Source of the DNA: Torpedo marmorata
Taxonomy: Eukaryota
NCBI GenBank assembly: GCA_977017645.1
Contig: OZ360229.1
Coordinates: 26,288,001 to 26,352,000, forward strand
Length of the DNA: 64,000 bases
Direction: 5' to 3'
The translations under genes were made by a program, and so were the position numbers. Shown piece by piece: positions 1 to 47,229 of this stretch. Position 1 is the first letter of the stretch, and each line of letters starts with the position of its first letter. The notes beneath the pieces are model-generated. The model had not been told where the DNA came from, ran no database searches, and worked only from the letters and a program-made list of their open reading frames with translations.

Positions 1-97
1 ACATATTGGACTTTGTTAGTAAATTAATTGAAACACGTCAAGAACAAGTATCTCACCTTGCCTCCAAGTGACTATTTGTTGGATTGAAGTCACTATA
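1..97 (+). repeat. 3' end of 5' LTR, BEL-derived copy 1
   Basis: Nearly identical to 10721-10817; the two diverge after position 98. Confidence 0.9.
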
Positions 98-559
98 TGT
101 TTAGTCAATGAAAGTGGTTGTTTGGAACAGAAAATTGAAGGAAAGAAGATAGAATAATCTCTCTGTGCTTTGGACTGATATTTAAAATAAAATGGTGGCC
201 ATCTTGGAGATGCCTCAAGTTAGGGGCAGTTTGTAATCCACATCCATCTGCCATGAATAACAGCCAGAGAGGGATTTAGAGCTTCAAATCTTTTTCTTTT
301 TTTTAAATTATTTTATTTAATTTTTTAAAATCACATAATACATAATTCAAAATATATAGTTTCCAAAATACAGTGATATAAATTTCCTCCCCCCACACCC
401 TCCCACCCCTCCCCAACCCCCCCAACCCCACTATTCTAAAAATAGAAATAGAAAAAGATAAAGAAAAAGAAAAAGAGATTAATAATGAGGAGAGAACCAT
501 CTGAAAACCAATTTTAATCTGGAGGTTAAACTCGCCAATAGATCTGATTTCCACAAATT

Positions 560-2886: not shown

Positions 2887-2916
2887 ACTACAAAAATAGC
2901 GTCAGAGGTAACGCGC

Positions 2917-4044
2917 ATGCGCGAATCAGGAAGATCACGTGAAGCACAGCGACCTCCGTCACAGGAGTACGTTAGAAGAAAAGACGCTCCCCAGACTGTA
3001 TTACAGCTGGGGGAGCTAGAAACATTGTCGGAGTCGGAAACCAGAGAGAGAGAGGCCCAACAGTTTGAAGAAGGGGACAGTGAGGAGTATGAACCATACC
3101 CAGAAGAGGTTATAAAGGATATTGGATCTATAAAGAATACTCAACAAAGAATATTACAAGCCATTACTAGGCTTGAACAACATATGCAGAGTGAATTTAA
3201 AGAAGCAAAACAGAATATGAAGAAAATGGAAACAGCTATGGATAAGATGGAGGTGAGAATGCAAAAGATGGAAGATGATGCTAAAATTAATTATGATGAT
3301 TTTGTGGACTATAGAGAAAGAGTGGATAAATTGGATGATTCATTTACTGGCTGGGAAAAGCAAAGAGATCAGATATTACAAAAGATGGATCAGATGGAAA
3401 ATCAAAGCCGAAGAAATAATGTTAAGATATTGGGATTACCTGAAGGTATGGAGCCGCAAGATCCAACTCAATTTTTTCAAGATTGGCTTATGCAAATATT
3501 TACTTTGGATAAACCAGTGGAGTTGGAGAGAGCCCATAGAATTGGAAGACGAGATCAGATAGATCGGAGACCTCGTCCAGTTTTGCTGAAATGTCTTAGA
3601 TATCAAGATAGAGAAAAAATAATAAGAATGGTGATTCAGAAGTCAAGAGAAAGCGGGACTCCGTTGTTGATTGATGGTAACAGAGTGCTTTTTTATCCAG
3701 ATCTAAGCTCGGCTGTGGTTAATAAGCGGAAGGAGTTTAACCTTACGAAGCAAATATTATGGCAGAAAGGGTATAAGTTCTCGTTTAAATTTCCTGCGAC
3801 TTTGAGAATTCAAAATGATGGAGATAAATCTATCTTATTTATGGATCCCCAGCAAGCACTTATTCATGCGAGAAGTCTTCCTCGTTTGCCTGGAAGTTAT
3901 AATTTGATTGCACGGCGACAAGAGCAAAACCGAGAAGATCAGCAAGGTCAAGTGGTGCCACCGTTGGTTGCGTCAGGAGAAGAAAATATTTTGGTTCAAG
4001 TCGAAGGAGAACAAGAAGAACTGGATTTGGGAGGAGTTAATTGA
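2917..4044 (+). CDS. L1 ORF1p (coiled coil + RRM + CTD); open frame, extreme N-terminus possibly clipped at the inversion junction
   Basis: Heptad region followed by RRNNVKILGLPE, ELERAHR, RPRPVL and FYPDLS motifs typical of L1 ORF1. Confidence 0.85.
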   Translation: MRESGRSREAQRPPSQEYVRRKDAPQTVLQLGELETLSESETREREAQQFEEGDSEEYEPYPEEVIKDIGSIKNTQQRILQAITRLEQHMQSEFKEAKQNMKKMETAMDKMEVRMQKMEDDAKINYDDFVDYRERVDKLDDSFTGWEKQRDQILQKMDQMENQSRRNNVKILGLPEGMEPQDPTQFFQDWLMQIFTLDKPVELERAHRIGRRDQIDRRPRPVLLKCLRYQDREKIIRMVIQKSRESGTPLLIDGNRVLFYPDLSSAVVNKRKEFNLTKQILWQKGYKFSFKFPATLRIQNDGDKSILFMDPQQALIHARSLPRLPGSYNLIARRQEQNREDQQGQVVPPLVASGEENILVQVEGEQEELDLGGVN

Positions 4045-4309
4045 ATTTATACTGTATGGTTTTATATTGATCTATTGGGGGGGGGTGGATATATTGGTAC
4101 TTCTTCCGAACCAATCACCACCTTAGCGGCGGAAGCTGCTACTCGAACAATGGAGGGGGGTAACACTGAGTTATCTGTGTTTTTTCTAAAAGGGTTTTTC
4201 TTATTTCTTTTTCTTTCTTTTATTTCATTTGAGGAGAGAATAGTTAAAATGCAATTTAGGAGGGAATCGCTAATAGACATGATAGATAGACAAAGATTAC
4301 AATGTGGTT

Positions 4310-5749
4310 ATGATGGATTCTAGAAGTATAAATTTAGTAAGTATTAATATAAATGGGCTTAATAATCCAATAAAGAGGAAAAGAACTTTGGCATACATGA
4401 AAAAGTTGAAAGTAGATATAGCTTTTTTACAGGAAACTCATTTAACAGAGGTTGAGCATCAGAAATTAAAAAGAGATTGGGTTGGACATGTTGAAGCTTC
4501 AACATTTAATTCTAAAGCTAGAGGAGTTGCAATTTTAGTTAATAAGAAATTACCTTTTAAAATACAGTCGGTAGTAGTAGATGTGGTAGGTAGATACGTT
4601 TTGGTTAACTGACAGATTTATTCAGAATTTTAGACACTTATGAATTTATATGTTTCAAATCCAGATGATGAACAATTTATTCAAGATGCATTTTTACATT
4701 TATCAGATGCTAAAGATAATATTTTAATTAGGGGGGATTTTAATTGTTGTCTGGATTCAATCATGGATAGGACTTCTAGATCGTTAGTTAGGCCTAAAAT
4801 AGTTAAAAGAATTATAAATTTGATGAAAGATTTGAATTTAATAGATATTTGGAGGAAATTGAATCCTAGAGAGAAAGATTATTCCTTTTATTCTTTTAGA
4901 CATGATTCATATTCTAGGATAGATTTGTTTTTAATATCTTCGCAAATTCAAGATAGAATATCACAGGTATCATATAAAGCGAGAATAATTTCAGATCATT
5001 CACCTTTGTTAATGACATGTGTAATTCCAGAAAAAGAGAAAACTATATTTAATTGGAGATTTGATTCATCTTTATTGAAAAGGATAGATTTTTGTGAATA
5101 TATGAGAAGGGAAATTCAAGAATTTTTGAGGATAAATGATCAATCAATTAATGATAAATTTATAATTTGGGAAACTTTAAAGGCTTATCTTAGAGGTTTG
5201 ATAATAAGTTATTTGGCAAAAATTAAAAAAGATTATTTGAAAGAAGCAGAAAAATTAGAGAAAGAGATTGAGATTATGGAAAAAGATTTACAGAGAAATA
5301 AATCAATTCGTAAGAGAAATTGTTTAATGAGGAAAAAGTTACATTATAATTTATTACAAACGTATAAAACGGAAAAATTAATAGAAAGAATGAAACAAAG
5401 ATGTTATGAATTAGGAGAAAAGGCTCATAAAGTTTTAGCATGGCAATTGAAAAAGGAACAAGTTTCTAAAACTATAAATGCTATAAAGAAAAAAAATACT
5501 GGTGAAATAACTTATAAACCCCAAGAAATAAATGAATCTTTTAAAGATTATTATCAGAATTTATATAGATCTCAGGTTGTTCAGGATGATTTGAAAATTA
5601 ATAGATTCTTATCTAGAATTACTTTACCTAAATTAAATACTCAAAATAAAAATTTTTTAGACTTACCTTTTATGATGAGAGAAGTTAATGAAGTATTATC
5701 GACGTTAAAAAGTGGTAAATCCCCTGGTGATGATGGATTTCCAGTAGAG
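4310..5749 (+). pseudogene. L1 ORF2 APE endonuclease and linker (inverted segment)
   Basis: NINGLN, FLQETH, GDFN, SRIDLF, SDHSP, ending at KSPGDDGFPVE; two in-frame stops at about 4610-4635. Confidence 0.92.
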
Positions 5750-6020
5750 CTTCAAATCTTATAGTAAAGTGTACTATAAATACGTTGGAGAAACCATTTC
5801 TGGAAAATCAGCGATATAATTGATGGATGTTGTGGTGAAACTCGTTTGTTGAATAGCAGCACATTACATTCATCTGAAGTGGTAGGCATAAGTCTGTGGA
5901 TTCCTGTGTATCTTTGGCAAGTTAGAACACAGATTGGATTTGCTGCCGCTGGTCCATTGGGGACTGTTGATTTGGCTAGTGTTGTGTATGCTTGAAGGAC
6001 AGTGGAACAAGATGAGTAAA

Positions 6021-9000
6021 ATGGCTGCAGCAGCCGCTGACGCAGCAACCTCTGATGTTGCTGTTAAGGACCAATGTATTGAAGGCATGCAGGTTGCGGA
6101 TATTAAAGAAGAATTTAAGCGAATTAAACTAGATATAAGTGGAAATAAAAGGGTTCTCATCGCAAGACTGAAGCTGGCAAAGGAAGATGTGGTTTTGTTA
6201 GATGAACAAGAAGATAGCCAATGTGGAAATGGCTGAAATTATGTCACCAAATGATGAAGAAAATGAAGAGGATGAAGATGCAAAAGATGTACAATTCGAA
6301 TTGGTGAAGGAGGTAAGTAAGAAGACAACATATGATCTGCAGGACGAAATACAAGCAAGTGACAGTGTCTCAAATGCTGAAAGCAGGAGAAACAAACGAA
6401 GTTCTGGTTCGAGCTCCAGAGTTTCTCGTACTTCAAGTTCTGCATCGTCACATACAAAGATTGAAGTTGACTTGGCCGCTCTTATTGCACGACAAAATTC
6501 TCTTAAGGATAAACATGTTTTAGAAGAACAGGAGGAGGAAATAAGAGAATAGGAGGAACAGCTGAGGCAGACAACAGGAGGAGCAGCTGAGGCAGAGTCA
6601 ATAGGAGGAGCAGCTAAGGCAGAGCCAACAGGAGGAACAGCTGAGGCAGAGACAACAGGAGGAGCAGCTAAGGCAGAGTCAACAGGAGGAACAGCTAAGG
6701 CAGAGCCAACAGCTAAGGAAGAGACAAGAGCAGCTAAGAAAGAGAAAAGAGCAGCAGGAGCTGAAAACAAATATTGCTATTGCCATGGCCAGAAAGAAAG
6801 CAATAGAAGGCTCAATGGTATCTGGTGTTCAGAGTAAATTATCTAAAGTGTCTGATAATAAAAGGTCATATTTTAAAAAAGAGTCACAGGGAAAGAAACC
6901 AACCAAAAAGGTAGATATTTTAGCAACAGGGGTACAAGACTTGCAAATACAAGGACAAATCCTTCAAGAGCATAGTGGTATCGAGTCACATGTACCAGTG
7001 GTAGGTAACATCTGAAGACAAAGTTGCGGCTTGGGTTCGGTCGAACGATGCAGCTCCCTTGTCATTTGAGTCAAGCATCAGAAATATGGGAGGAACTACA
7101 CCAGTGAGGTTTCCAGATAAATTACCTGTAACAAGAGGTGGTGAACAGAGCAATGTATTGTCATCCAAGGGAAGACAAAATGAAATTGCTGCATCATTGA
7201 TTCAGTTACAGTCTCTCTCTTCTTTGCCTAAGAAAGAGATAAAAACATTTGATGGTGATCCACTTCAGTACCAAGCGTTCATGAGATCTTTCAAACGCAA
7301 TATTGAAAATAAATGCCAAGAAACTGATGAATGTCTTTATTATTTGGAAATGTTCACAGAAGGACATCCAAAAGAACTTGTAAAGAGTTGTCAACATATG
7401 TCCTCAGACAGAGCTAAATCTTTATTAAAACAACATTTTGGCAACAAGCATCGAATTGCTTTAGCTTATATGGATAAAGCTCTTAAATGGACATCAATAA
7501 AACAGAATGATGTAAAGGCTCTACAAGCATATACTCTATTTTTAAGAGGATGTTGTAATGCCATGGAAGATATCGATAATATTCATGAGCTTGAAGTGCC
7601 TGGTAATATGTGAATCATCTTAGAAAAATGATCTTACAAGTTGTGGGATAGATGGAGAAATTTGGCTTGTGATTTACAAGAAAAGTACAGTCGAAGAACT
7701 ACTTTAAAGGACTTGGTAAATTTTCTTGAACGACAGGTGTACATTGAAACAGATCCAATATATGGAAATACCAGAGACAATTCAATGGGGAACAAAGATG
7801 TAAGGAGGTCTAACTCACAGCCTAGTCCGAAATTGAAAAGGAGTACTTTTGCTACTAATGTGTCAGATTAAAAGATAAAGTAAATAAGGAAAAGGAAAGT
7901 TTGACTGATGAGAAGAGTTGTTTGTTCTGTAAAGGTGGACATACTTTGGAAATGTGTTTACGTTTGGGAAAAAAAGGAATATAATGAGATCGCTTTTTTA
8001 AAGGAAAATGGAATATGTTTTAGGTGTCTGTGTAAAGGGCACATCAGAAAAAACTGCGAGAAGCGAATTATCTGTAACATATGCAATTTGAAACATCCTA
8101 GAATTTTTCATATCCATCAAAGAAAGAAGGAATTGGAAAAGGAGCAAACAGAAACAAAGGAAACAACAGAAAACAATGTTATAACCTCGGTTCAGACAAG
8201 TGGTCTTACCGGGGTCGGTATAGATAACTGCGAACTTTTAATAGTGCCTGTACAAGTCAAGACCAATAAAGGGGATGCAACAGTACATACATATGCATTT
8301 CTTGACCTAGGCAGTACTGCATCTTTTTGCATGGAAGGACTAATGAACAAACTTAATATTCAAGGAAGAAGGTCAAGAATTATGTTGAAAACCATGGGAC
8401 AAGAAAAGGTCGGTGAAACCAGCATTGTGTCAGGCTTAGAAGTAGCTGGATTGGATGACAAAAAAATTTGTGATCTTCCAATGTTATATACTCAAAAGAC
8501 TATGCCTGTGCACGAAGGAAACATTCCTCATCAAAATGATTTCCATCATTTGTCTTATCTATGGAAGGTTTATTTACCTGAAGTTAACTCTGAGATAGAA
8601 ATGCTGATTGGTTCAGATGTACCAAAGGTTTTGGAACCACTAGAAGTAATATGGAGTAGAGGGAATGGACCTTACGCTGTTAGAACCAAGCTTGGTTGGA
8701 CAATCAATAGACCATTGGAAAGAAATAATGATATTGCTCAGGAACAGTTAGCGATAAATATTAACAGGATTTCGGTTGTGAAAGTTGATGAGTTAAGGGA
8801 AGAGCAAAAGACTGTGATTAAGAAAGTCACTTTTGAAGAAAAGAAAATAGATCAATGTGAAAATAAATCAAAGGTATTTAAAACAACATTGAAAGAATTA
8901 TTTTCATCAGAAATGGATGAAAATGAAGTATTAGAAGATGTTGCAAATAATACTATTGATTATTCATGTGTATTTGAATCAGATACAGGAATAAAACTAG

Positions 9001-9892
9001 TGACTGAGAACAAATTTGAAAGTAGGTTTTGTAGTTCGGAGGTTACAACAGACAAAGGCCATGAAGAAATGTTGCAATGTGGTGTAAAACTGGAGAACAC
9101 AGGAAATTGTGCTGCTCGGAATGAAGAAGAATGTGAATGATAATTTAAATGCAATTAAATTCAGAGAACAAAATGTTGAAAGGGGAATTGGAAATATTAG
9201 ATAATCATGAAAACAGTAAACAGAAAGATTTAATTGTAAGTAAAATTCGCAAAATCAGAAAGCGGAAGAAAGGAATGACTGCTGAAGAAATAAATACAGT
9301 TATTGAGGAAAGAGATTCAGCATTATCAAAATGTAAAAGGTTAGAGGAAGAGATTAATATTTTGAAAGAGAACAAGTTATTGGTTAAAACACAAAACAGT
9401 TGATTATAGAAAACAATCAAGAATGTAAATTGAATGTTCAGCTACAAACAATGAAAAAAGTGATATTGTATTGCAGAAATGTAACAAGCAAGATGAAGAA
9501 ATTCAAAAATTTCAAGTTTACCACAACAGGGTTGATAATAGAAACACCAATGTCTCACATAATATTTTCACTTCAGATCAAGTTATTAATTTCTCGCAAG
9601 GAACTGAGACGGAATTGAAAGCTGCAAAATTGGATTTGGAATTGCATGAAAAGGCAATAGAAATCAGAGTGGTTAAAGAGACTCGTTTATTAAAATCGAG
9701 AAGATCAGATAAATATTCAAATTCTAGTTCTAAGAGTTTAAATTCTTCACATGAGAAGTGGAATGCTGAAGAAAGGAATAAAGTGAAACGACATGCTGAA
9801 GAAGTGCCTCGTGTTAAATTTTGTTTGAGGAAGATTTGAGGTTTACTGGTCGACGTTTTAACTCAAATATTCTGGAGATAAAAGAACTTTGA
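6021..9892 (+). pseudogene. Chimeric polyprotein: SAP domain - BEL gag - zinc knuckles - aspartic protease - MIPOL1-like coiled coil (disrupted)
   Basis: ORF pieces at 5934, 6202, 6785, 7059, 7641, 7908, 9149, 9400 and 9471 are colinear with copy 2. AAAATGG start at 6021 and stop after KEL at 9890. Confidence 0.8.
6546..6765 (+). repeat. About 27-bp coding minisatellite (GGAGGAGCAGCTAAGGCAGAGCCAACA; EEQLRQSQQ)
   Basis: About six clear units plus degenerate ones read directly. Confidence 0.85.
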
Positions 9893-10074
9893 GGAGACAT
9901 TGTAATTATTATGGACGATTCAGCTCCTCGAAACTCCTGGATACTTGGAAAAATTATTAGACTATTCAGGACAAAAGGGGACTTGTGCGTCAAGTTCGAA
10001 TTAAAACTAAGACCGGCTTTCTAAATAGACCTATTAACAAGGTCTGCCTTCTGTTGGAGACAGAGGAACTTTGA
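9893..10074 (+). pseudogene. BEL integrase C-terminal tail remnant (DUF5641-like)
   Basis: GDIVIIMDDSAPRNSWILGKII..DKRGLVRQVRIKTKTGFLNRPINKVCLLLE. Confidence 0.8.
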
Positions 10075-10274
10075 TAAATACAACCTGACTTTATTTGTTG
10101 TTGTATACTTCACAGGTTACAGACTTTTGTTGATTCAGAGTTATGGTAAACTCTGGTCTTATGAAGAAAGAAGATTTGTATATTGTTTGAATGTTATATG
10201 GTTATTGTTATTTGTAATTGATTGTGTAGTTATTATTTAAGACATTGTGTCTCGTTATAATAATTAGGGGCCGG

Positions 10275-10817
10275 TGTAAGAGCCGTAGGTTTAGTTACAT
10301 ACCTTCTTCGCGGCGTTCCGATGGTCTCGGCGGGGTTCGGAGGAGTCGCGGTGTTTAGTAGTTCGTGCTGGGCCTATTTAGTACTCTGCACATGCGCGAG
10401 AGTGCCGACGGGCGCATGCGCAGTTGGGAAGTGACGGCAGTATGCGCGGTGGAGTATGCGCGGTGAGCATGCGCGAATCGGGGAAGAAAGAATAGAAAAA
10501 GATGGCGGCTTACAGGAGGGTGAGTGAGATCGCTATATCTTTCATTGACCGTCAAAAAAATGTCAAAAGAATGTTTAATGTAACGTTTAAAGGAAGTTTA
10601 TAGATGTTTTGAAGAATCGTTATTAATCATCGTTATCAAGAATTGTTTATATTTCATTAAAAAAGATATTTAAGTTATTGAAGATTGCTACAAGTCATCA
10701 TGTGTTAATAAACATTTTGAACATATTGGACTTTGTTAGTAAATTAATTGAAACACGTCAAGAACAAGTATCTCACCTTGCCTCCAAGTGACTATTTGTT
10801 GGATTGAAGTCTCTATA
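10275..10817 (+). repeat. 3' LTR of BEL-derived copy 1
   Basis: Starts TGTAAGAGCCGTAGG after the PPT; CpG-rich 5' part; AATAAA near 10707; end matches 1-97. Confidence 0.88.
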
Positions 10818-10899
10818 TCAATGAACAATTATCAGTAAGTAGCTGTTAGTTGTGGATCTGCTGTTGCAGCAGAGATGGTTTAGTGAACCTGAAACATTA

Positions 10900-26135: not shown

Positions 26136-26477
26136 CAAAAGTTCCAGCAGTGAGCCAGAGTACCAAAGCGACTCCAAGGATGATGGGGCATTGGCAGTAA
26201 AGTACATCCGTAGTGTAGTTGATCGCAGGTCAGAAATGTTTGTTCATATTAAAGTTAACAATGAACCGGTCCAGATGGAACTCGACACAGGGGCGGCTGT
26301 GTCATTAATGTCGAAAGATCTGAAAGACAAACTACTGCCCAAACTTGAAATGAAACGGTCGGACATAGTGTTAAAGACGGTTATCGGAGAGAAAGTCAAA
26401 GTGCTAGGGAAATGTAAAGTAGACATCGAGTATAAGGGACAGACAAAGAAAGGATTACCCCTTTACATTGTACATAC

Positions 26478-27369
26478 TGTTACAAATTCAAACCAGCAAC
26501 GACAGAAGACGCAATGCAAAAGGGGTAAAATTGAAATTACTATTTATTAAACACAATTAAACATGTAATTTCACAACAATTAACCCCACTATAAACGTCT
26601 ATAAACACTATTCTTATCTAAAAGGTGTGTGTGTGTGTAAAGCCCAGACCATTACAGTCTGTGCCCAACCCTTATGTAAAAATGGAAAAACTTTCCCCAA
26701 AAAACCCCAGGTCAGTCATAAAAAACAAGTCAGTCAAAAAAACAAAAGAATAATTCAGTCCACAAGATTCACTCTCTAAGTTCAGGCTTCAATTCAGCTC
26801 TGGGTCTGGTAGAAGTACTTCTGAATGAACGTTGGAGAGAGACAATGACAGTTATGCTTACAAATACTTGTTTTCTTCTCTGATGACGTCCCCTTCTTGT
26901 AGGTTCATAAGGATTGCAAGTTCCAGATCAGTATACCACTGATTTAGGCGTATGCTTGAATCTCACAGCTAGTCTCGCTGATCTCACGCCTGTTCTCCAC
27001 AGAAGTTGCTTTTTCTCAGAATTTCTCTCTGAGACAGGAGGCCATGTGCTATTCTGTCAGTCTTTCTCTGACTTTTGCACACGCCTGGATTTGGCTGTGT
27101 CTTGTAGCCTTGCAACTCACAACTGTGTCTGCTTTGCAGAGATCTGCCCCTGCTTTTTGCAGAAGTGAAACAAATGTATCTTGTCCAGGCTGTCTCTGTC
27201 TCTCTCTCTGTCTGGGTACACCAAGAGTGCAACAATGTATCTTGTCTGGGTACACCAAGTAGCTGGGGAAGTTAACTCTTTCAGTACCTGGCCCCAGTGT
27301 ATACTCCAAAAGAATTCTTCCTTCCTGCTGACCGTCCGCAGTCCAAATGGTCAGTCATGGTCCATAACA
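26478..27369 (-). mobile_element. Solo LTR, 892 bp, in Gypsy 1 protease
   Basis: Reverse complement of 20924-21823; TSD ATAC; removal restores LYIVHTKGPALFG. Confidence 0.92.
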
Positions 27370-29645
27370 ATACAAAAGGACCCGCCTTGTTTGGAAGGGA
27401 TTGGTTGTCGCACATCCAACTGGATTGGAAGGAAATTGTTGTGGTGAATAACATACAAACTATGGGCGAAAAGAAATCAAAGCTGAAGCAGATGCTTCAG
27501 AAGTGTCAGACAGTTTTTGAGAAGGACCTGGAAAAAATTCAGGGAGTCCAGGTAAAATTGCAATTGGAACCGGAAGCCAAACCTAAGTTCTTTAAGCCAA
27601 GGACGGTACCTTTCGCGATTTAAAAAAAGGAATTGAGACGGAGCTCAACAGATTAGAAAACGAAGGAATACTCGAGAAACTTCAGTACAGCGACTGGGCA
27701 GCTCCTATTGTGCCGGTCAGAAAACCCAATGGTGAAATTCGAATTTGTGGGGACTATAAGGTCACAATTAACCAAGCACTGCAAGTTCCCGGACATCCCA
27801 TTCCGAGAGCAGAGGAATTATTTCAAGCTCTAAATGGTGGGAAAAAGTTCACGAAATTGGACTTATCACAAGCGTATCAACAAGTCGAATTGGACCCCGA
27901 ACCAAGGAAGTATGGGGCTATCAACACTCACCTGGAATTGTTCACTTACACCAGGATGCCATATGGGATATCATCAGCTCCAGCAATATTTCAAGCTGTC
28001 ATGGTCAAACTATTGCAAGGACTAAATGTTGGATGTTACCTAGATGACATCATCATAACACGTCGGGACGACGCAGAGCATCTAACAAACCTGGAAAAGG
28101 TCCTTGCCAGGTTAGAACAGGCTAAAGTCCGACTGCATCAAGACAAGTGTGTATTTATGGTACCCTCAGTAACGTATTTGGGATTTATGATTGACCGTGA
28201 AGGAGTCAGGATGGATACAGCTGGCACCGAAGCCGTTTGCCGTGCACCTTGCCCATCGAATCGAGCTGAGTTACAATCGTTTTTAGGTTTGGTTAACCAT
28301 TATCGGAAGCACATCCCTAACATGTCAACGCTGTGCAACCCGCTCAACCAATTGTTAAAAAAAGACCAGAAATGGTGCTGGAATGCGGAAACCGACAAAG
28401 GTTTCAATTGCTTGAAGAAATTGCTGATCTCAAGGGACAATGTTCTCGTTCATTACGACCCAGACAAGGAAGTGACCCTGGCTGTTGATGCTTCACCTAT
28501 TGGTTTAGGTGCGGTATTGTCACAAGTCACGGAAAAGGAGAACAACCGGTTGCATATGCTTCCCGCTCCTTGACGGCCTGTGAACGGAACTATGCGCAAC
28601 TGGAGAAGGAAGGACTAGCCATAATCTTTGGGCTTAAGCGATTTCACCAATACCTATATGGTAGGATGTTTACTTTAGTGACGGACAATAAACCACTGAG
28701 CTTGTTCTTAGGCCCCAAGAAAGGCATTCCTGTGTTAGCGGCGGCGAGAATGAAAGATGGGCGATGGAGCACGCGGCGTACGATTATGACCTAAAGCATC
28801 GTCCGGCAGACAAGAACAGCCATGCGGATGCATTATCGCGCTTACCTCTGCCTGTGACAGAACAGGCGGAAGGGAACATTAATTGGACAACGGAAGCCAC
28901 AGCGATCATCCAGGAACAACTTCACCACTTGCCTATTACAGCGAAGGCTATCAGCAAAGATGTACAGAAAGAAGCTAAACTGTCGAAGATTCTATACTTC
29001 ACCTTGAATGGGTGGCCAGAGGCCGACAGTATTACCCCCGAATTGAAAGCTTATCACACGGGGCGAAACAAAATATCAATTGAAGAGGGTTGCCTGTTGT
29101 GGGGAACAAGAACAATCATCCCCAAGAAATGGCAAGAGGCCATGCTAAAAGAGCTCCACACCAATCATCCAGATGAAGGCGCTGGCACGCATGCATGTCT
29201 GGTGGCCATCGATTGACAGTGACATTGAACAGATGGTGCGGAGATGTCACATCTGCCAAGAAATGCAACCGAAGGCACCCCAGGCCATGGAAATGGTCAT
29301 CACAACCATGGCACCGAATTCACATTGATTTCGCTGGTCCATTTATGGGGGGAAATTTTCTGATTATTGTGGATGCACACTCTAAATGTAGTGCCAATGC
29401 GGTCAATGACAACGGAAAAAAACAATTGAGGAACTACGAGGTGTGTTCACAGGGTATGGATTCCCCATAGAACTGGTTTCAGACAATGGACCTCAATTTG
29501 TGTCAGATGCTTTCAAACAATTTCTGCGAGGCAACAATGTGCGACACATATTATCTGCACCCTACCACCCTAGTACTAATGGGGAAGCGGAGCACTTCGT
29601 GCAGACGTTTAAAAGAGCAATGAAAGCAAAGAAGTCATGTACATA

Positions 29646-36480: not shown

Positions 36481-38293
36481 TATAACCATATAACCATATA
36501 ACAATTACAGCACGGAAACAGGCCATTGGGCCCTTCCAGTCTGCACCGAACCAAACATTCCTATCTAGTCCCACCTACCTGCACCCTGCCCATAACCCTC
36601 CACTTCCTTCTCATCCATATACTTGTCCAACTTTTTCTTAAATAATAAAATTGACTCTGCCGCCACTACTTCTCCCGGAAGCTCATTCCACACCGCTACC
36701 ACTCTCTGAGTAAAGAAGTTCCCCCTCATGTTACCTCTAAACCTCTGCCCCTTAACTCTTAGCTCATGTCCTCTTGTTTCAATCTCTCCTACTCTTAATG
36801 GAAATAGTCTATCCACATCCACTCTGTCTATCTCTTTCATAATTTTAAATACCTCTATCAAATCCCCTCTCAACCTTCTACGCTCCAAAGAATAAAGACC
36901 TAATAGGCTCAATCTCTCCTTGTACTCTACCTTCTTAAACCCAGGTAACATTCTGGTAAACCTTCTCTGCACTCTCTCCACTTTGTTGATATCCTTCCTA
37001 TAATTTGGCGACCAGAACTGCACACAGAACTCTAAATTAGGCCGCACCAAAGCCTTATATAATCTCAACATCACTTCCCAACTCCTATATTCTATGCAAT
37101 GATTGATAAAGGCCAGCATACTAAATGCCTTCTTCACCACCCTATTCACATGAGTTTCCACCTTCAGGGAATGATGCACCGTTATTCCTAAATCTTTCTG
37201 CTCTTCTGTATTCATCAATGCTCTCCCATTTACTACATATGTCCTGTTCTGATTCTTCTTACCAAAATGAAGCACCTCACACTTATCAGCATTAAACTCC
37301 ATCTGCCATTTTTCAGCCCACTTTTCTAACCAGCCCAAATCCCTCTGCAATCCTTGAAAACCTTCATTATCCACTATTCCACCTATCTTAGTATCATCTG
37401 CATATTTACTAATCCAGTTTACCACCCCATCATCTAGATCATTGATATATATAACGAACAACAATGGGCCCAATACAGATCCCTGAGACACACCGCTGGT
37501 CACCGGCCTCCAACCTGACAGACAATTATCCACTACCACTCTCTGGCCTCTCCCTTCCAGCCAATGTTCAATCCATTTGACTATCTCAGAATTTATACCT
37601 AAAGACTGCACCTTCCTAACTAACCTTCCATGCGGAACCTTATCGAAGGCCTTACTGAAGTCCATATAGACAACATCCACTGTGCTACCCACATCCACAT
37701 TCCTAGTCACCTCTTCAAAAAATTCAATCAGATTGGTGAAACAGGACCTTCCGCTCACAAATCCGTGTTGAGAGTTCCTGATCAGACCCTGCCTATCCAG
37801 ATATTTATAAGTACTATCTCTGAGAACTTTCTCCATTAATTTACCTACCACAGACGTCAAACTTACAGGCCGATAATTGCCAGGCTTCCTCCTTGAACTC
37901 TTTTTAAATAACGGAACCACATGCGCAATACGCCAATTCTCCGGCACTATCCCCATCTCTAATGACATTTGGAAAATCACCATCAGAGCCTCTGCTATTT
38001 CTTCACTTACTTCTTAAAGGTCCTGGGGAAGATCCCGTCGGGTCCCGGAGACTTATCCACCTTTATATGCCTCAAAAGCCCTAACACTACATCTTTCGTA
38101 ATCCCTATATTCTCCATATTTACCCAATTTGCTTTTTTTATCTCGCATATCTCAATATCCTTCTCCTTGGTGAATACCGAAGAAAAGAAACTGTTCAATA
38201 TCTCCCCCATTTCTCTAGGCTCCACACACAGTTTTCCGCTCTGATTCTCTAAGGGACCAATTTTGTCCCTCGCTTTCCTTTTACCATTAACGT

Positions 38294-38869
38294 TATTATG
38301 GTGACTTCGATCCAACAATAGTCACCTGGAGGCTAAGTGATATACTTGTCTTTGACGCGTTTTAATTAATTTACCAACAAAGTCCAATATGTTCAAAAGT
38401 CTTTATTTACACACGTGACTTGCAGTAATCTTCAATGACTTAAATATAAACAGTTCTTGAAAACGATGTATGATGAGTTTCTTTAAATGATTCTTTAACC
38501 AATTCCAAACTACAAAGTAACCAGTTCAATGTTCTGAAACGATGTATAAGACGTTATAAAACGGTCAATAAAGATATGGAAATTTCACTCACCCTCCTAC
38601 ATCTTATTCTTTCTCCTATTCTCTCATTCGCGCATGCCCCGTCGCTCCCATACCACTGCGCACCCTCCATCGCGCATACTACATTTCCCAATATACACCG
38701 CGCAAAATGACGTCACTCCAGACTGCGCATGCGCCCGTCGGCACTCCAGCGCATGCGCAGAGCACAGAACGGGCCGAGGACAGCCTACAGACAACGCGAG
38801 CGCTCCACAACCCGACGAGACATCGGAGCGCCGCAGCAAAGGTAAGTTAATGAGCCTACGGCTCTTACA
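38294..38869 (-). repeat. 3' LTR of BEL-derived copy 2
   Basis: Direct repeat of 43527-44101. Confidence 0.95.
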
Positions 38870-39065
38870 CCGGCCCCTAATTATTATAATTAGATGCAAT
38901 GTCTTGAATAATAATTACACTATAAATTATAAATAACAATAACCATAACATTCAAACAATACAAATCTTCTTTCTTCCTTGTTCATAAACCTAGAGTTTA
39001 CCATAACTCTGAAAAGTCTGTAACCTGTGAAATATACAACAACAAATAAAGTCAGTTTATATTTA

Positions 39066-39250
39066 TCAAAGTTCCTCTGACTCCAACAAAAGAGACAGAC
39101 CTTGTTAATAGGTCTGTTTAAAAAACCAGTCTTAGTTTCAATTCACACTTGACGCACAAGTCCCCTTTTGTCTTGAAAAGTCTCAATAATTTTTCCAAGT
39201 AACCAGGAGTTTCTTGAAGTTGAATCATCCATTATAATCACAATGTCTTT
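39066..39250 (-). pseudogene. BEL integrase C-terminal tail remnant
   Basis: DIVIIMDDSTSRNSWLLGKIIETFQDKRGLVRQV..KTGFLNRPINKVC. Confidence 0.8.
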
Positions 39251-42200
39251 TTAAAGTTCTTTTATCTCCATAATCTTTGAGTTAAAACGTCAACCAGTAA
39301 ACCTCAAATCTTCCTCAGACAAAATAGATACAGTTTTTCTTTTGAATTTAACACAAGGCACTTCTTCAGCATGTCGTTTCACTTTATTCCTTTCTTCAGC
39401 ATTCCACTTCTCATGTGAAGAATTTAAACTCTTAGAACTAGAATTTGAATATTTATCTGATCCTTTCGATTTTAATAAACACGACTGTTTAACCACTCTG
39501 GTTTCTATTGCTCTTTCCTGCAATTCCAAATCCAATTTTGCAACTTTCAATTCAGTCTCAGTTCTTTCTGAGAAATTAATAATTTGATCTGAAGTCAAAA
39601 TATCATGTGATACATTGATATTTCCATTGTCAATCCTGTTGCGACAAACTTGAAATTTTTTAATTTCTTCATCTTGTTTGTTACATTTCTGCAATGCAAT
39701 ATCACATTCTTTCTGCATTGTTAATTGTTGAACATTCAATTTACATTCTTGATTGGTTTTTAAAGACAACTGTTTTGTGTTATTAACCAATAACTTGTTC
39801 TCTTTCAAAACATTAATCTCTTCCTCCAAACTTTTACATTTTGATAATGCTGAATCTCTTTCCTCAATAACTGTATTCATTTCTTCAGCAGTTATTCTTT
39901 TCTTCCGCTTTCTGACTTTGCGAGTTTTACTTACAATTAAATCTTTCTGTTTACTGTTTTCTTGATTATCTAATATTTCCAATTCCCCTTTAAACATTTT
40001 GTTCTCTGAATTCAATTGCATTAAATTATCATTCACATTATTCTTTATTCCATCAGCACAATTTTCTGTGTTTTCCAGTTTTACATCACATTGCAATATT
40101 TCTTCATTAGTTTTGTCTTTTGTAATCTCTGAACTACAAAATCTACATTCAGATTTGTTTTCAGTCACTTGTTGTATTCCTGTATCTGATTCAATTACAC
40201 ATGATCAATAGTATTATTTGCAACATCTTCTAATACCTCACTTTCATCCATTTTTGATGAAAATAATTCCTTCAATGTTGTTTTAAATACCTTTGATTTA
40301 TTTTCACATTGATCAGTTTTCTTTTCTTCAAAAGTGATTTTCTTATTCACAGTATTTTGCTCTTCGCTTAACTCTTCAACTTTCACAACCGAAATTCTAT
40401 TAATATTTATCGCTAACTGTTCCTGAGCAATATCATTATTTCTTTCCAGTGGTCCATCGATTGTCCAACCAAGCATGGTTTTAACAGCATAAGGTCCATT
40501 CCTTTTACTCTCTATTACTTCTTTTGGTACCAAAACCTTTGGCACATCTGAACCAATCAGCATTTCTATCTCAGAATTAATTTCAGGTAAATAAACCTTC
40601 CACAGATAAGCTAAATGATGAATATCCCTTTGATGAGGAATATTTCCTTCATTCACAGGCATAGTCTTCTGAGTATATACACTTGGAAGATCACAAAATT
40701 TTTTGTCATCCAATCCAGCAACCTCTAAGCCTGAAACAATGTTAGTTTCAACAACCTTTTCTTGTCCCATGGTTTTTAACATAATTCTTGATCTTTTTCC
40801 TTGAATATTAAGTTTATTCATTAGTCCTTCCGTGCAAAAAGATGCAGTGCTGCCTGGATCTAGAAATGCATATGTTATTACTATTGCATCCCCTTTCTTG
40901 GTCTTGACTTGTACAGGCACTATCGAAAGTTTGCAGTTATTCACACCGGCCCCGGTAAGACCACTTGTCTGAACCGAGGTTATAACATTATTTTCTGTTG
41001 TTTCCTTTGTTTCTGTTTGCTATTTTTCCAATTCCTTGTTTCTGTTATGGATATGAAAAATTCTAGGATGTTTCAAATTGCATATGTTACAATTAATTCG
41101 CTTCTCGCAGTTTTTACTGATGTGTCCTTTACACAGATAGCTAAAACATATTCCATTTTCCTTTAAGAAAGCGATCTTTTCCTTATGTTCCTTCTTTTCC
41201 AATCGTAATCACATTTCCAAAGCATGTCCACCTTTACAGAACAAACAACTCTTTTCATCAGGCAAACTTTCCTTTTCCTTATTTACTTTGTCCTTTTCTT
41301 TACTTATAACTTGCACATTAGTAGCAAAAGTACTCCTTTTCACTTCGGACTAGACTGTGTGTTAGACTTCCTTACATCTTTGCCGATTGAATTATCTCTG
41401 GTATTTCCATATAGTGGATCCATTTCAACGTACACCTGTCGTTCAAGAAAATTTACCAAATCCTTTAAGGTAATTTTTCGACCGTAATTTACTTGTAAAT
41501 CACAAGCCAAATTTCTCCATCTATCCCATAACTTGTAAGGTAATTTTTCTAAGATGATTCGCATATTACTATGCTCTTCAAGCTCACGAATATTATCGAT
41601 TTCTTCCATAGCATTACAACATCCTCTTAAAAACAGAGTATATTCTTGCAGAGCCTTTACATCATTTTGTTTTATTGATGTCCATTTAAGAGCTTTATCC
41701 ATATAAGCTAAAGCAATTCGATGCTTGTTGCCAAAATATTGTTCCAGTAAAGCCTTAGCTTTGTCTAATCCTCTTTTTGAAGACATTTGTTTACAACTCT
41801 TTACCAGTTCTTTTGGATGTCCCTTTGTGAACATTTCCAAATAATAAAGACATTCATCACAATCTTGGCATTTATCTTCAATATTGCGTTTGAAAGATCT
41901 CATAAATGATTGATATTGAAGTGGATCACCATCAAAAATTTGTATCTCCTTCTTGGGTAAAGAAGAGAGAGACTGTAACTGAAACAATGATGCAGCAATT
42001 TCATTTTGTCTTTCCTTGGATGACAATACATTGCTCTGTTCACCGTCTCTTGTTGCATGCAATGTATCTGGAAACCTCACTGGTGTAGTTTCTTCCATAT
42101 TTCTGATGCTTGACTCAAATAACAAAGAAGCTGCTTCGTTCGACCGAACCCAAGCCGCAGCTTTGCTTTCAGATGTTACCATTGATACATGTGACTCGAT

Positions 42201-43070
42201 ACCAATATGTTCTTGAAAGGTTTGTCCTTGTATTTGCAAATCTTGTATCCTTGATTCTAAAATATCTATCCTTTTGGTTGGTTTCTTTTCCTGTGATTCT
42301 TTTTTTAAATATGACCTTTTATTATCAGACACTTTAGATAATTTACTTCTAGCACCAGATACCATTGAGCCTTCTATTGCTTTCTTTTCTACCTTGGCAA
42401 TAGCAATGTTTGCTTCCAGCTCCTGCTGTTCTTTTATCTGCCTTAGCTGCTCCTTCTCTTGTCTTAGCTGCTCCTCCTCTTGTTTTAGCTGCTCCTTTAT
42501 CTGCACCTCCTTTTGTCTTATCTGCTCCTCCTTTTGTTCTAAAATATGTTTATTCTTAAGCGTTTTTTGTTGTGCAAGAAGAGCGGCCAATTGAACATCA
42601 ACCTTTGTACGTGACGATGCAGAACTTGAAGTACGAGAAACTCTGGAGCTCGAACCAGAACTTCTTTTGCTTCTCCTGTTTTCAGCATTTGAGACACTGT
42701 CACTTGCTTGTATTTCGTCCTGCAGTTCATATGTTGTCTTCATACTTACCTCTTTATCCAATTCAAATTGTATATCCTTTGCATCTTCAACCACTTCAAT
42801 TTCTTCATCATTTGTTGACACAATTTCAGCCATTTCCATTTTATCTTCTTGTTCATCTAATGAAGCTGCCTCTTCATCCTTTGCCTGCTTCAATCTTTCG
42901 ATAAGAACCTTTTTATTTCCACTTATGTCCTTTTTCAGTCGCTTCAATTCTTCTTTAATATCCGAAACCTTCATGTCTTCAATACGTTGGTCCTCAACAG
43001 CAACATCAGCGGTTGCTGCGTCAGCTGCTGATACATCAGTAGCTGCTGTATCAGAGACTGCTGCGGCCAT
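39251..43070 (-). pseudogene. Chimeric polyprotein: SAP - BEL gag - zinc knuckles - protease - MIPOL1-like coiled coil (few lesions)
   Basis: ORFs 41340-43157, 41020-41202, 40195-40944 and 39290-40168 join once lesions absent from copy 1 are corrected; protease AFLDPGS. Confidence 0.85.
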
Positions 43071-43526
43071 TTTACTCGTCTTGTTCCTCTTTCCTTCAAG
43101 CATACACAACACTAGCCAAATCAACAGTCCCCAATGGACCAGCGGCAGCAATTCCAATCTGTGTTCTTACTTGCTAAAGATACACAGAAGGAGTCCAAAG
43201 ACTTATGCCTACCACTTCAAATGACTGTAATGTGCTGCAATCCACAAACGAGTTTCAACCACAACATCTGTCAATAATATCACTGATTTTCCAAAAATGG
43301 TTTCTCCAACGTATTTATAGGACACTTTACTATAAGATTTGAAGCTTTAAATCCCTCTCTGGCTGTTATTCATGGCAGATGGATGTGGATTACAAACTGC
43401 CTCCAACTCGAGGCATCTTCAAGATGGCCACCATTTTATTTTAAATATCAGTCCAAAGAACAGAGAGATTATTCTATCTTCTTTCCTTCAATTTTCTGTT
43501 CCAAACAGCCAGCTCTTTATTGACTA

Positions 43527-44101
43527 TATTATGGTGACTTCGATCCAACAATAGTCACCTGGAGGTTAAGTGCGATACTTGTCTTTGACGCGTTTTAATT
43601 AATTTACCAACAAAGTCCAATATGTTCAAAAATCTTTATTTACACACGTGACTTGCAGTAATCTTCAATGACTTAAATATAAACAGTTCTTGAAAACGAT
43701 GTATGATGAGTTTCTTTAAATGATTCTTTAAACAATTCCAAACTACAAAGTAACCAGTTCAATGTTCGAAACGATGTATAAGACGTTATAAAACGGTCAA
43801 TAAAGATATGGAGATCTCACTCACCCTCCTACATCTTATTCTTTCTCCTATTCTCTCATTCGCGCATGCCCCGTCGCTCCCATACCACTGCGCACCCTCC
43901 ATCGCGCATACTACATTTCCCAATATACACCGCGCAAAATGACGTCACTCCAGACTGCGCATGCGCCCGTCGGCACTCCAGCGCATGCGCAGAGCACAGA
44001 ACGGGCCGAGAACGGCCTACAGACAACGCGAGCGCTCCACAACCCGACGAGACATCGGAGCGCCGCAGCAAAGGTAAGTTAATGAGCCTACGGCTCTTAC
44101 A
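43527..44101 (-). repeat. 5' LTR of BEL-derived copy 2
   Basis: Begins TGTAAGAGCCGTAGG on the minus strand; direct repeat of 38294-38869. Confidence 0.95.
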
Positions 44102-45172
44102 AACGTATTTGTAAAAACCTTTTGGATTAATTTTCACCCTGCTTGCTATAGTCTCTTCATACCTTCTTTTAGCTTTCCTAATTCCTCTTTTAAGATTCTT
44201 TTTACATTCAATGTATTTTTCAAACATCTCCTTATTTCCATGCTTCTTATACTTAATGTACGCCTCCCTTTTTTTTCGAACCAAGTTTCCAATATTCCTC
44301 GAAAACCACGGCTCTCTCAAACCTTTTGCCCCTCCTTTTAACCTAACGGGAACATAAAGCTTTTGCACTCTCAAAATTTGATCTTTAAAAGAATTCCATC
44401 TCTCTACTACATCCTGTCCATAAAACAAATTGTCCCAATGCACACCCTGTAAGTCCTTTCGCATCTCCTCAAATCTAGCTTTTCCCCAATCAAAAACCTC
44501 AACCCTTGGCCCTGACTTATCTCTTTCCATAATGACATTGAAGCTGATGGCATTATGATCACTGGACCCGAAGTGCTCGCCAACACAAACCTCCATCACT
44601 TGACCTATCTCATTTGCTAACAGTAGATCTAACACTGCTCCTTCTCAGGTCGGTACCTCTACATATTGTTATAAAAAACTATCCTGCACACATTTCACAA
44701 ACTCCAACCCATCCAGCCCTTTCACAGAATGTGTTTCCCAATCTATATGTGGAAAATTAAAATCTCCCATAATCACAACCCTGTGCTTATCACAAATATC
44801 CACTACCTCCCTACAGATTTGCCCCTCTAGGTCTCGGTCCCCTCCGGGTGGTCTATAATACACCCCTACAAGTGTAACTTCTCCTTTCCCACTTCTCAGT
44901 TCCACCCAAATAGCCTCTGTGGACGAGCCCTCTAATCTATCCTGCCTAAGCACCGCTGTAATATTCTCCCTGACAAGCAATGCAACACCACCTCCTCTTG
45001 CCCCTCCGACTCTATCACACCTAAAGCAACGAAACCCAGGGATATTCAGCTGCCAATCACATCCCTCCTGCAACCATGTCTCACTGATTGCTACCACCTC
45101 ATACTTCCAAGTATCAATCCACACCTTCAGCTCATCCACCTTTTTTACAATACTCCTGGCATTAAAATATAT

Positions 45173-47229
45173 ATGTCCACCCTTTGCAGCCCGCTAAACC
45201 ATTTATTAAAAAAAGATCATAAATGGTGCTGGAATGATGAAACGGACAAAGTTTTTAATCGGTTGAAGGAACTGTTGACCTCAAATGATAATGTTCTTAT
45301 CCACTATGAGCCAGATAAAGAAGTGACTTTAGCTGTCGATGCTTCACCAACCACAGAAAAAGGGGAACAGCCAGTGGCATATGCGTCCCGCTCCTTAACG
45401 GCATGCGAAAGAAATTATGCACAAATAAAAAAGGAAGGACTGGCCATTATATTTGGTCTTAAACAATTTCACCAATACTTATACGGTAGAAAGTTCATTT
45501 TGTTGACTGATAACAAACCACTGAGTTTAATTTTAGGACTGAAGAAAGGTATCCCGGTATTAGCGGCGGCAAGAATCCAAAGGTGGGCGATGGAGCTTGC
45601 AGCGTATGATTATGATATAAAACATCGCTCTGTGGACAAGAACGGGCATGCGGACGCATTATCACGCTTATCCCTGCCCACAACAGAACAGAGGGAAGGG
45701 AATATCAATTGGATGGCAGAAGCCACAGACATCAACCAAGAACAACCGCATCAATTACCAATCACATCTAAGGCCATCAGCCAAGAAGTAAGAAAGGAGG
45801 CTACATTGTCAAAAGTTATGCACCTCACCTTAAATGGGTGGCCAGACGGCAAGAGCATCACCCCCGAACTAAGGCCGTTTTACACAAGGCGAAATGAAAT
45901 ATCCATTGAAGAGGGTTGCCTGCTGTTGGGGACAAGAACGATCATTCCACAAAAATGGCAGGAGGCTTTGTTACAGGAGATCCACACCAATCATCCCGGA
46001 ATGGTGCGGATGAAGGCGCTGGCACGTATGCACGTCTGGTGGCCAGAAATTGATAGGGACATTGAACAGCTGGTACGGAGGTGCCACATCTGTCAAGAAA
46101 TGCAACCAAAGGCACCTCATGCAGAAGCCAATCCATGGAAATGGCCGTCACAACCATGGCATAGGATTCACATCGATTTCGCTGGGCCATTCATGGGAGA
46201 AACCTTCCTAATTATTGTGGATGCACACTCCAAATGGCCTATTGTGTGGCTGATGCGATCAACAACAACAGAAAAGACCATCGAGAAATTACGCAGTGTG
46301 TTCGCAGAGTATGGGTTACCGATACAGCTGGTCTCGGACAATGGGCCTCAATTTGTATCGGATGCTTTCAAACGATTTCTAAGAAAAAACAATGTGAAAC
46401 ACATATTATCGGCACCATACCACCCGAGTACCAATGGGGAAGCCGAGCGTTTTGTACAGACTTTTAAAAGGGCAATGAAGGCCAGAAAGTCAAATGGAGC
46501 ATCCTGGAACCATAACATTGCAGATTTTCTGCTGTCATATAGAACAACGCCGCACTCGCCCACAAAACGCACGCCAGTGGAACTGATGTTTGGACGGAAC
46601 TTAAGAACACGACTTACTGCAGTACACCCAAATATCGGACTCCACATCCAACAATCAACATTACCAAACAAATCAACCAGATCTCTGGAGATTGGGGAAC
46701 CAGTACTTGTAAGAGATTATAGACAAAATAAAGAGACTCGGTAAGAGGCGTGCTCTTAAAAAAACTAAGCCCATGTTCATATTCTGTACTGGTTGGAGAC
46801 AACATATGGAAAAGACACATAGACCAGATAAGAGCAGTCGAAGACTACAGTTTCAATACAGCCACGGAAGAGCTCTTAGACGTTCCGGTTTGGACACAGC
46901 CAGATTTTGTGGCCCCTTGGAAAGCCCCGGTACCGGTTACAGAAATACCAGCAGGGAAGGCTGCGCCAGGGCACGAGGCTAGCCAAGCATCCGAAAGACA
47001 AACCATTGTGCCAAGGAACGAGGAGAATTTAGCTTCGAAAAGATCGGAAACTCGTACCCCTGTTCGGTGTTCTCCACTCCCAAGGAGATCCATGAGAGAA
47101 ATGAACGAGGAGAATTTAGCTGCTCCGGAAAGGTCAGAAACTCGTACCCCTGTTCGGTGTTCTTCACTCCCAAGGAGATCCCAAAGAGAAAGACACCCCC
47201 CAGCACATCTTAAGGATTATGTGCAGTGA
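45173..47229 (+). pseudogene. Gypsy 2 pol, RNase H and integrase
   Basis: VDASP, HPG..M...AR..VWWP..CHIC, DFAGP, DNGPQF, GEAERFV. Confidence 0.92.

Follow-up and report, generated by a model that had tools for sequence, protein, structure and literature searches.

How did the Gag of a BEL/Pao retrotransposon in Torpedo marmorata come to begin with a SAP domain, and does this domain serve the element that carries it? The question arises from a 64,000-nucleotide stretch of contig OZ360229.1 (positions 26,288,001 to 26,352,000), referred to here as the window. The initial annotation of this locus proposed that the domain was taken from a gene of the SAFB/SLTM type in a second capture, that this capture supplied the Gag start codon, and that the resulting protein could be tethered to chromatin.

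The SAP-bearing element is a non-autonomous derivative of a BEL/Pao LTR retrotransposon, and the window holds two copies of it, A on the minus strand and B on the plus strand (Table 1). It has the LTRs, short target-site duplication, DUF1759 Gag and protease of BEL/Pao LTR retrotransposons. The two LTRs of copy A agree in 563 of 572 aligned columns, and the copy is flanked by a 5-bp target-site duplication (44102-44106 and 38289-38293) within what we take to be a CR1-like LINE. The surrounding repeats resemble those of a cartilaginous fish. Mapping of the layout with 6 of the 35 BEL relatives described below gave the same order in both copies: BEL Gag, zinc knuckles, protease, approximately 1.1 kb without a BEL match, and the last 53 codons of the BEL polyprotein. 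The reverse transcriptase (RT), RNase H and integrase core are missing: about 1050 residues of the relative P0004 (897-1943) find no counterpart in the two copies. The Gag frame of copy A is open from 43070 to 41343 (-), giving 576 aa; none of the 4 breaks falls inside it, and the openness of these 576 codons does not reach significance (p=0.09). Two further features of the element were observed: the sequence after the 5' LTR opens with TAGTCAA and not with the usual TGG (43515-43526 (-) and about 100-112 (+)), and the Gag coiled coil (42442-42537 (-) and about 6540-6760 (+)) contains 21- and 33-nt tandem repeats whose copy number differs between A and B.

Table 1. Positions of the two element copies and their parts in the window.
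Feature	Position	Strand	Remarks
Copy A, whole element	38294-44101	-	
Copy A, 5' LTR	43527-44101	-	575 bp; TG start, TA end
Copy A, 5' untranslated region	43071-43526	-	5 upstream ATGs; ATG at 43103 in frame with Gag
Copy A, strong-context ATG and Ala/Asp-rich leader, aa 1-28	42987-43070	-	short tandem repeat
Copy A, SAP domain, aa 30-63 of Gag frame	42882-42983	-	Pfam PF02037; ungapped MKL1 match
Copy A, post-SAP acidic segment, aa 65-79	42834-42878	-	in register with human SAFB1 66-80
Copy A, BEL Gag proper	41343-42752	-	homology clear from about aa 107-119
Copy A, DUF1759 (BEL Gag)	41514-41936	-	Pfam, aa 379-519 of SAP-bearing frame
Copy A, zinc-knuckle region and aspartic protease	40357-41343	-	frame change near 41340; two stops
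Copy A, non-BEL segment replacing RT, RNase H and integrase core	39250-40356	-	
Copy A, MIPOL1-like coiled coil	within about 39632-39994	-	Atlas
Copy A, integrase tail (last 53 codons of BEL polyprotein)	39089-39247	-	downstream of stop codon
Copy A, 3' LTR	38294-38869	-	
Copy B, 5' LTR end and start of 5' untranslated region	1-292	+	96/97 identical to 3' LTR of B
Copy B, remainder	5745-10820	+	layout as copy A; several frameshifts and stops
Copy B, SAP domain	6078-6173	+	Pfam
Copy B, 3' LTR	10275-10820	+	TG...CA

Copy B extends from before the first base of the window to 10820, and its 5' untranslated region is split by a 5.45-kb insertion bounded by a 16-bp duplication (277-292 = 5745-5760). 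The segment 1-292 is not a third copy; it belongs to the 5' end of copy B, which the insertion has separated from the rest. The insertion itself (293-5744) is presumably L1-like, with a part on the minus strand at about 294-2581 and, on the plus strand, what we take to be ORF1 (2917-4044) followed by the start of ORF2. The reading frame of copy B shifts directly after the SAP domain. The two copies are about 90% identical internally and 81.5% identical over aligned LTR columns, which indicates that they represent two subfamilies, each inserted fairly recently. Their frame breaks lie at different positions, and this suggests that the frame of the family once continued from the SAP domain via the protease and on into the foreign segment. 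Although a stop precedes it in both copies, the integrase tail (about 9893-10047 (+) in copy B) has a dN/dS of 0.09 with a dS of 0.50; taken with the more diverged LTRs, these values suggest that the 3' ends of the subfamilies derive from different autonomous helpers.

The SAP domain at the front of this BEL Gag is real, and the match is well beyond chance. The reading in the initial annotation of an AAAATGG start (43073-43067 (-)), followed by MAAA, the SAP string that it quoted and an acidic tract, was borne out, and a Pfam scan of the whole copy A protein matched PF02037 at aa 30-63 (E 3.5e-9, 36.5 bits). The second occurrence, in copy B, likewise stood (6021-6215 (+); SAP E 2.2e-7, 30.8 bits). 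Cut down to their 40-aa cores, the domains score 42.3 bits (A) and 32.6 bits (B) against a Pfam gathering cut-off of 23.9, covering positions 2-35 (A) and 2-33 (B) of the 37 in the profile, and the core pattern of a hydrophobic helix 1, Gly-x-Lys and Leu-x-x-Arg-Leu is present ungapped. The best match in the PDB is the SAP domain of MKL1 (2kvu), also ungapped (E 9.1e-5 for A, 0.0053 for B), which has Leu at the position of aa 47, as does copy B, where copy A has Lys. According to PMC9958909, a structure of SAFB was not yet available at the time of its publication. Both of two AlphaFold runs returned one long helix and not a helix-loop-helix, which is weak evidence given that the input was two-sequence alignments. 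The best NCBIfam hit was unrelated (E 0.03), and no PHROGs family matched. A profile of the two copies found no further SAP domain in the six frames of the 64-kb window; two degraded elements which we take to be Gypsy-like (26236-29216 and 45173-46744 (+)) do not match it either.

To place this domain relative to the native BEL Gag, we used 35 BEL relatives obtained from a Gag-core search among proteins of 1009-2880 aa. PF02037 is present in none of these long relatives according to precomputed Pfam annotation, and a profile of the window SAP found nothing in them (best i-E 0.16). A common N-terminal domain of approximately 120 residues, helical by sequence, precedes the region of homology to the window Gag in 29 of the 35; a profile built from 27 relatives scores two outside it at 4.6e-32 and 1.2e-6. 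Five of the other six are truncated or deleted at this domain, and one is a distant outlier. The helical domain was not found in protein P0001 (best i-E 0.12) or in the whole window (0.36), and the window Gag aligns clearly with BEL Gags from about aa 107-119 onward. The relatives are 27-56% identical to the window element, the closest being 49-56% identical in the Gag core, and those that are named are from teleosts. In a protease tree the window copies group with five BEL relatives (SH-aLRT 95, quick search), and they do so with the same five in a Gag tree (87/88, midpoint root), on a long stem of 0.30-0.58 changes per column.

Comparison with the fish BEL/Pao polyproteins P0002 and P0004-P0007, for which we assume the family name Belpaoviridae, illustrates the exchange. 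These share with the window element the Gag from about aa 107-119, the zinc knuckles, the protease, the integrase tail, the LTRs and the 5-bp target duplication; they differ from it in having the conserved helical N-terminal domain and no SAP, and P0004, P0006 and P0007 differ further in having RT and integrase-region domains (precomputed Pfam). The N-termini of BEL relatives had been singled out as the place where a native SAP should appear throughout related BEL families, and the count there is 0/35. Since no relative has the SAP, 29 of the 35 have another domain in its place and the window copies are nested among them, the SAP is very probably a derived replacement of the shared helical N-terminal domain; the autonomous partner of the family is not among the sampled relatives.

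We compared the domain with candidate donors by eye, taking human peptides and residue names from the literature and letting the SAP set the register. Published supplements supplied letters for SAFB1 61-91 (PMC5003815) and SLTM (PMC8501107), with PMC6018634 and PMC6581911 also consulted; the tables searched for the SAP core of SAFB or SLTM yielded no letters for it. Human SAFB1 has seven acidic positions within 66-80 (PMC5003815), all of which are acidic in the window protein and five of which are identical (hypergeometric 0.0012, shuffle 0.0007), a post hoc result for a human sequence with hnRNPU as the sole control tail. At the acidic positions beyond the SAP helix the agreement is 4/4 (0.010 hypergeometric, 0.020 shuffle; also post hoc). 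P0001 contains the SAFB1-type acidic pattern a single time, and the 35 BEL N-termini lack it. At the 23 positions for which SAFB letters could be sourced, SAFB has 10 identities and hnRNPU 6, again by eye. As in the window protein, the SAP of SAFB1, SAFB2 and SLTM is preceded by a low-complexity leader and starts some 20-30 residues into the protein (PMC9958909; PMC10901741). Four of the 14 SAFB2 residues named in PMC9958909 (Arg29, Val35, Asn52 and Lys53) are identical in copy A, at identical residue numbers, while Ser31, Arg45 and Ser54 are not kept in the window SAP. The window protein differs from SAFB1, SAFB2 and SLTM in having neither an RRM nor an ER-rich region. The Gly-Gly-x-Pro that follows the helix in SAFB1, and generally in the SAFB family, is also absent, and copy A has A-A-S-L there. 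The SLTM string given in the initial annotation has 23/39 identities by eye and was left out of the evidence.

Database searches added little to these comparisons. Word-seeded searches with the SAP region returned 0/1030 candidates at E up to 1e-3 among proteins of 316-1008 aa and 0/106 at E up to 10 among proteins of 526-2000 aa, and an Atlas search with the SAP gave no usable match; a named SAFB or SLTM protein came up neither in these searches nor in the PDB search. A profile search of the library returned 46 unnamed matches of 27-52% identity, none below 1e-10 and none longer than 1023 aa. The evidence leans toward the proposed SAFB/SLTM origin: the register of the acidic tail argues for it, while hnRNPU and MKL1 also match the domain well. 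Judging from human letters, we favor a SAFB-family gene as the likelier donor of the SAP.

The leader that precedes the domain is less informative. It comprises aa 1-28 in copy A and 18 aa in copy B, and has a GC content of 54%, where the remaining measured segments have 27-39%. This is in keeping with a first exon from a host gene, although Ala codons alone also raise GC. The N-terminal peptide of SLTM is Ala-rich (PMC8501107), and the window leader is of low complexity. No BEL relative among the 35 opens with MAA; a low-complexity leader as such, of 10-47 aa, is native to BEL Gags. Compared with 23 BEL leaders as a test for retained BEL sequence, the window leader gave a best shuffle p of 0.013-0.017, which is not significant when 23 targets are allowed for, and the acidic linker gave 0.10-0.11 against 27 BEL linkers before correction for targets. 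A second in-frame ATG, in a weaker context, lies 33 nt farther upstream in each copy (43103 in A, 5988 in B), and one more is present at 6012 in copy B. With these upstream ATGs and the leaders of native BEL Gags, the proposed supply of the start codon by the capture is conjectural.

Other origins for the domain have to be set against a SAFB-family donor. The profile of the two copies also matches Hsp70 nucleotide-binding domains (E 0.016), with a short, striking run of identity in the SAP loop (42870-42989 (-)); this match requires two one-residue gaps, is about 2000-fold weaker than the ungapped match to MKL1 (8.7e-6), and disappears in single-copy searches and in Pfam at E up to 10, where SAP scores 5.5e-11. 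We judge the resemblance to be chance, and an Hsp70 fragment or a fortuitous helix-loop-helix look-alike in place of a SAP is highly improbable. Among host SAP genes, hnRNPU shares 17 of 34 visible positions with the window SAP, 8 of 10 within helix 1 (aa 34-43) among them, and has an acidic region downstream, and MKL1, besides being the best PDB match, is identical at 17 of 39 positions without gaps. The SAP leader of hnRNPU is nevertheless only 7 residues long and its tail fits at one of the two acidic positions beyond the helix; Val55 of both window copies is Glu in hnRNPU and in MKL1, and neither has Asn52 or Lys61, so that a donor such as hnRNPU or an MRTF/myocardin gene appears unlikely. 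SAP-headed Gypsy-type Gags exist in invertebrates, and the domain might have come from such an LTR Gag, or from a Zisupton or Penelope-like element, by recombination of co-packaged RNAs. SAP domains are indeed reported as accessory domains of mobile elements in Zisupton and in a Chlamys Penelope-like element, Chlamys-1_pPol (PMC8557442), which, compared by description, belong to other element classes and have the SAP at other positions. The window contains no other SAP, and the SAFB1-like register of the tail and the weak, short library matches also speak against a mobile-element source, which we consider rather unlikely. It is also improbable that the defective family merely inherited the SAP from an autonomous BEL lineage which is present in this host group, is absent from the databases and had acquired the domain at an earlier time. 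The long stem of the window pair, the lack of any relative closer than 56% and the folding of proteins into 50%-identity clusters in the representative library would all accommodate such a history; the empty SAP-region searches among proteins of 316-1008 and 526-2000 aa count against it, as weak evidence given that many full BEL polyproteins exceed 2000 aa. A SAFB-family donor to the present family remains our preferred reading.

Divergence between the copies bears on what the domain does. The Gag core has a dN/dS of 0.38 (p=3e-4) and the zinc-knuckle/protease region one of 0.36 (p=2e-5); Gag core and protease are under purifying selection. Constraint was not detected in the SAP (dN/dS 0.66, p=0.52), where 37 codons in two copies are compatible with weak selection, nor was it significant for aa 1-112 pooled (p=0.20) or for the 3' foreign segment (p=0.15). 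The dN of the SAP is 0.145, against about 0.07 in the Gag core and protease (Fisher p=0.03), and its amino-acid change is indistinguishable from the pooled synonymous divergence (p=0.87). In SAFB2, the R45A mutation unfolds the SAP domain and K53A/S54A abolishes binding (PMC9958909). Lys53 is kept in the window SAP, and the positions of Arg45 and Ser54 are changed in both copies.

These results weigh against the suggestion that the domain tethers Gag to chromatin: the SAP shows no detectable constraint and lacks two residues on which folding or binding depends in SAFB2, and for tethering of an integrase the element encodes no integrase to tether. A selected tether would bring Gag or the cDNA complex to chromatin by binding AT-rich dsDNA, in replacement of the lost N-terminal domain, and it is still conceivable because two subfamilies that differ internally by about 10% both retain the SAP in frame and recognizable, with scores exceeding the Pfam cut-off. 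Gly51, Lys53, Leu56, Arg59 and Leu60 are invariant between the copies, the Gag core and protease downstream are under purifying selection, and the SAFB2 SAP binds dsDNA via Lys53, which is kept here, and Ser54 (PMC9958909). Set against this are a dN twice that of the Gag core and protease, the altered Arg45 and Ser54 positions, the single helix in both AlphaFold runs (weak, from two-sequence alignments) and the merely micromolar affinity of the isolated SAFB2 SAP (PMC9958909). Moreover, copy B, whose frame is broken just after the SAP and whose LTR ends differ at 1 of 97 positions, may have moved without a Gag of its own. A selected chromatin tether is accordingly unlikely, and we regard the SAP as probably a tolerated passenger.

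The segment that replaces the RT, RNase H and integrase core bears on whether the SAP would be an isolated event. The top Atlas match for part of it is MIPO1 (0.96), with 147 of 256 features in common where 170 are typical of same-family matches, on a score that is uncalibrated for protein parts. This assignment agrees with what is known of the MIPOL1 protein, which we take the piece to resemble; the corresponding fragment in copy B is at about 9180-9540 (+). The non-BEL, coding-like flanks of the MIPOL1 piece (39293-39630 and 40022-40356 (-)) have no convincing match in Pfam or NCBIfam, and may be one or more additional captures. The MIPOL1-like fragment implies that the family takes up host sequence, and the description of the SAP as a second capture is reasonable in an element that holds another host-like fragment.

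We propose that a non-autonomous BEL/Pao family was rebuilt twice by capture of cellular mRNA and carries the SAP as a passenger, an account which, taken as a whole, we hold to be evenly balanced between right and wrong. Each swap would have occurred by template switching of reverse transcriptase onto a host mRNA packaged in the particle, as in LTR-mediated retroposition. For the SAP, the template would most likely have been the 5' part of an mRNA of the SAFB/SLTM family, extending past the SAP by about 15 residues or more. Since the frame stayed open, translation would have placed the SAP at the head of Gag; it would be carried chiefly because it is tolerated, rather than through selection for chromatin tethering, and copying would depend on RT and integrase provided in trans. 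Capture of mRNA by LTR elements through template switching, giving multi-gene chimeras, has been described by Tan et al. 2016 (PMC5131818), including a case in mosquito, BEL18_AG, and onward spread as non-autonomous elements. The mark of such LTR-mediated retrocopies, replacement of part of the internal ORF by foreign sequence between two LTRs, host mRNA in the published cases (PMC5131818), is present here. The window family differs from them in having two separate replacements, one of which is an in-frame swap of the Gag N-terminal domain, and in having split into subfamilies while the Gag core and protease are still under purifying selection.

Capture of host genes by LTR elements is thus already known. 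In the literature searched, which included few subscription journals and no Repbase descriptions, we came across no earlier description of this family or of a BEL Gag with a SAP at its head, and a BEL survey (PMC3118150) contains no word beginning 'SAP'. In a preprint (10.64898/2026.06.26.734816), MIPOL1 heads the list of the five genes with most retrocopies among cartilaginous fishes, and the profiles of different lineages are discussed in terms of selective filtering. The MIPOL1 retrocopy counts may have a simpler cause, amplification within this BEL family, and we consider such a consequence likelier than a role in tethering. A bolder and improbable combination of the two starts from SAFB as a host suppressor of L1 and LTR elements (PMC10901741): the SAP of SAFB would anchor particles or cDNA to AT-rich chromatin, or compete with SAFB, allowing an element without pol to spread to high copy number, and the family would explain the listing of MIPOL1 among the most retrocopied genes of these fishes. 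What is unusual in this family is that a conserved Gag N-terminal domain was swapped in frame for a host-like DNA-binding module and that the family replicated on. Such a swap would illustrate one way in which retroelement proteins acquire accessory chromatin-binding domains.
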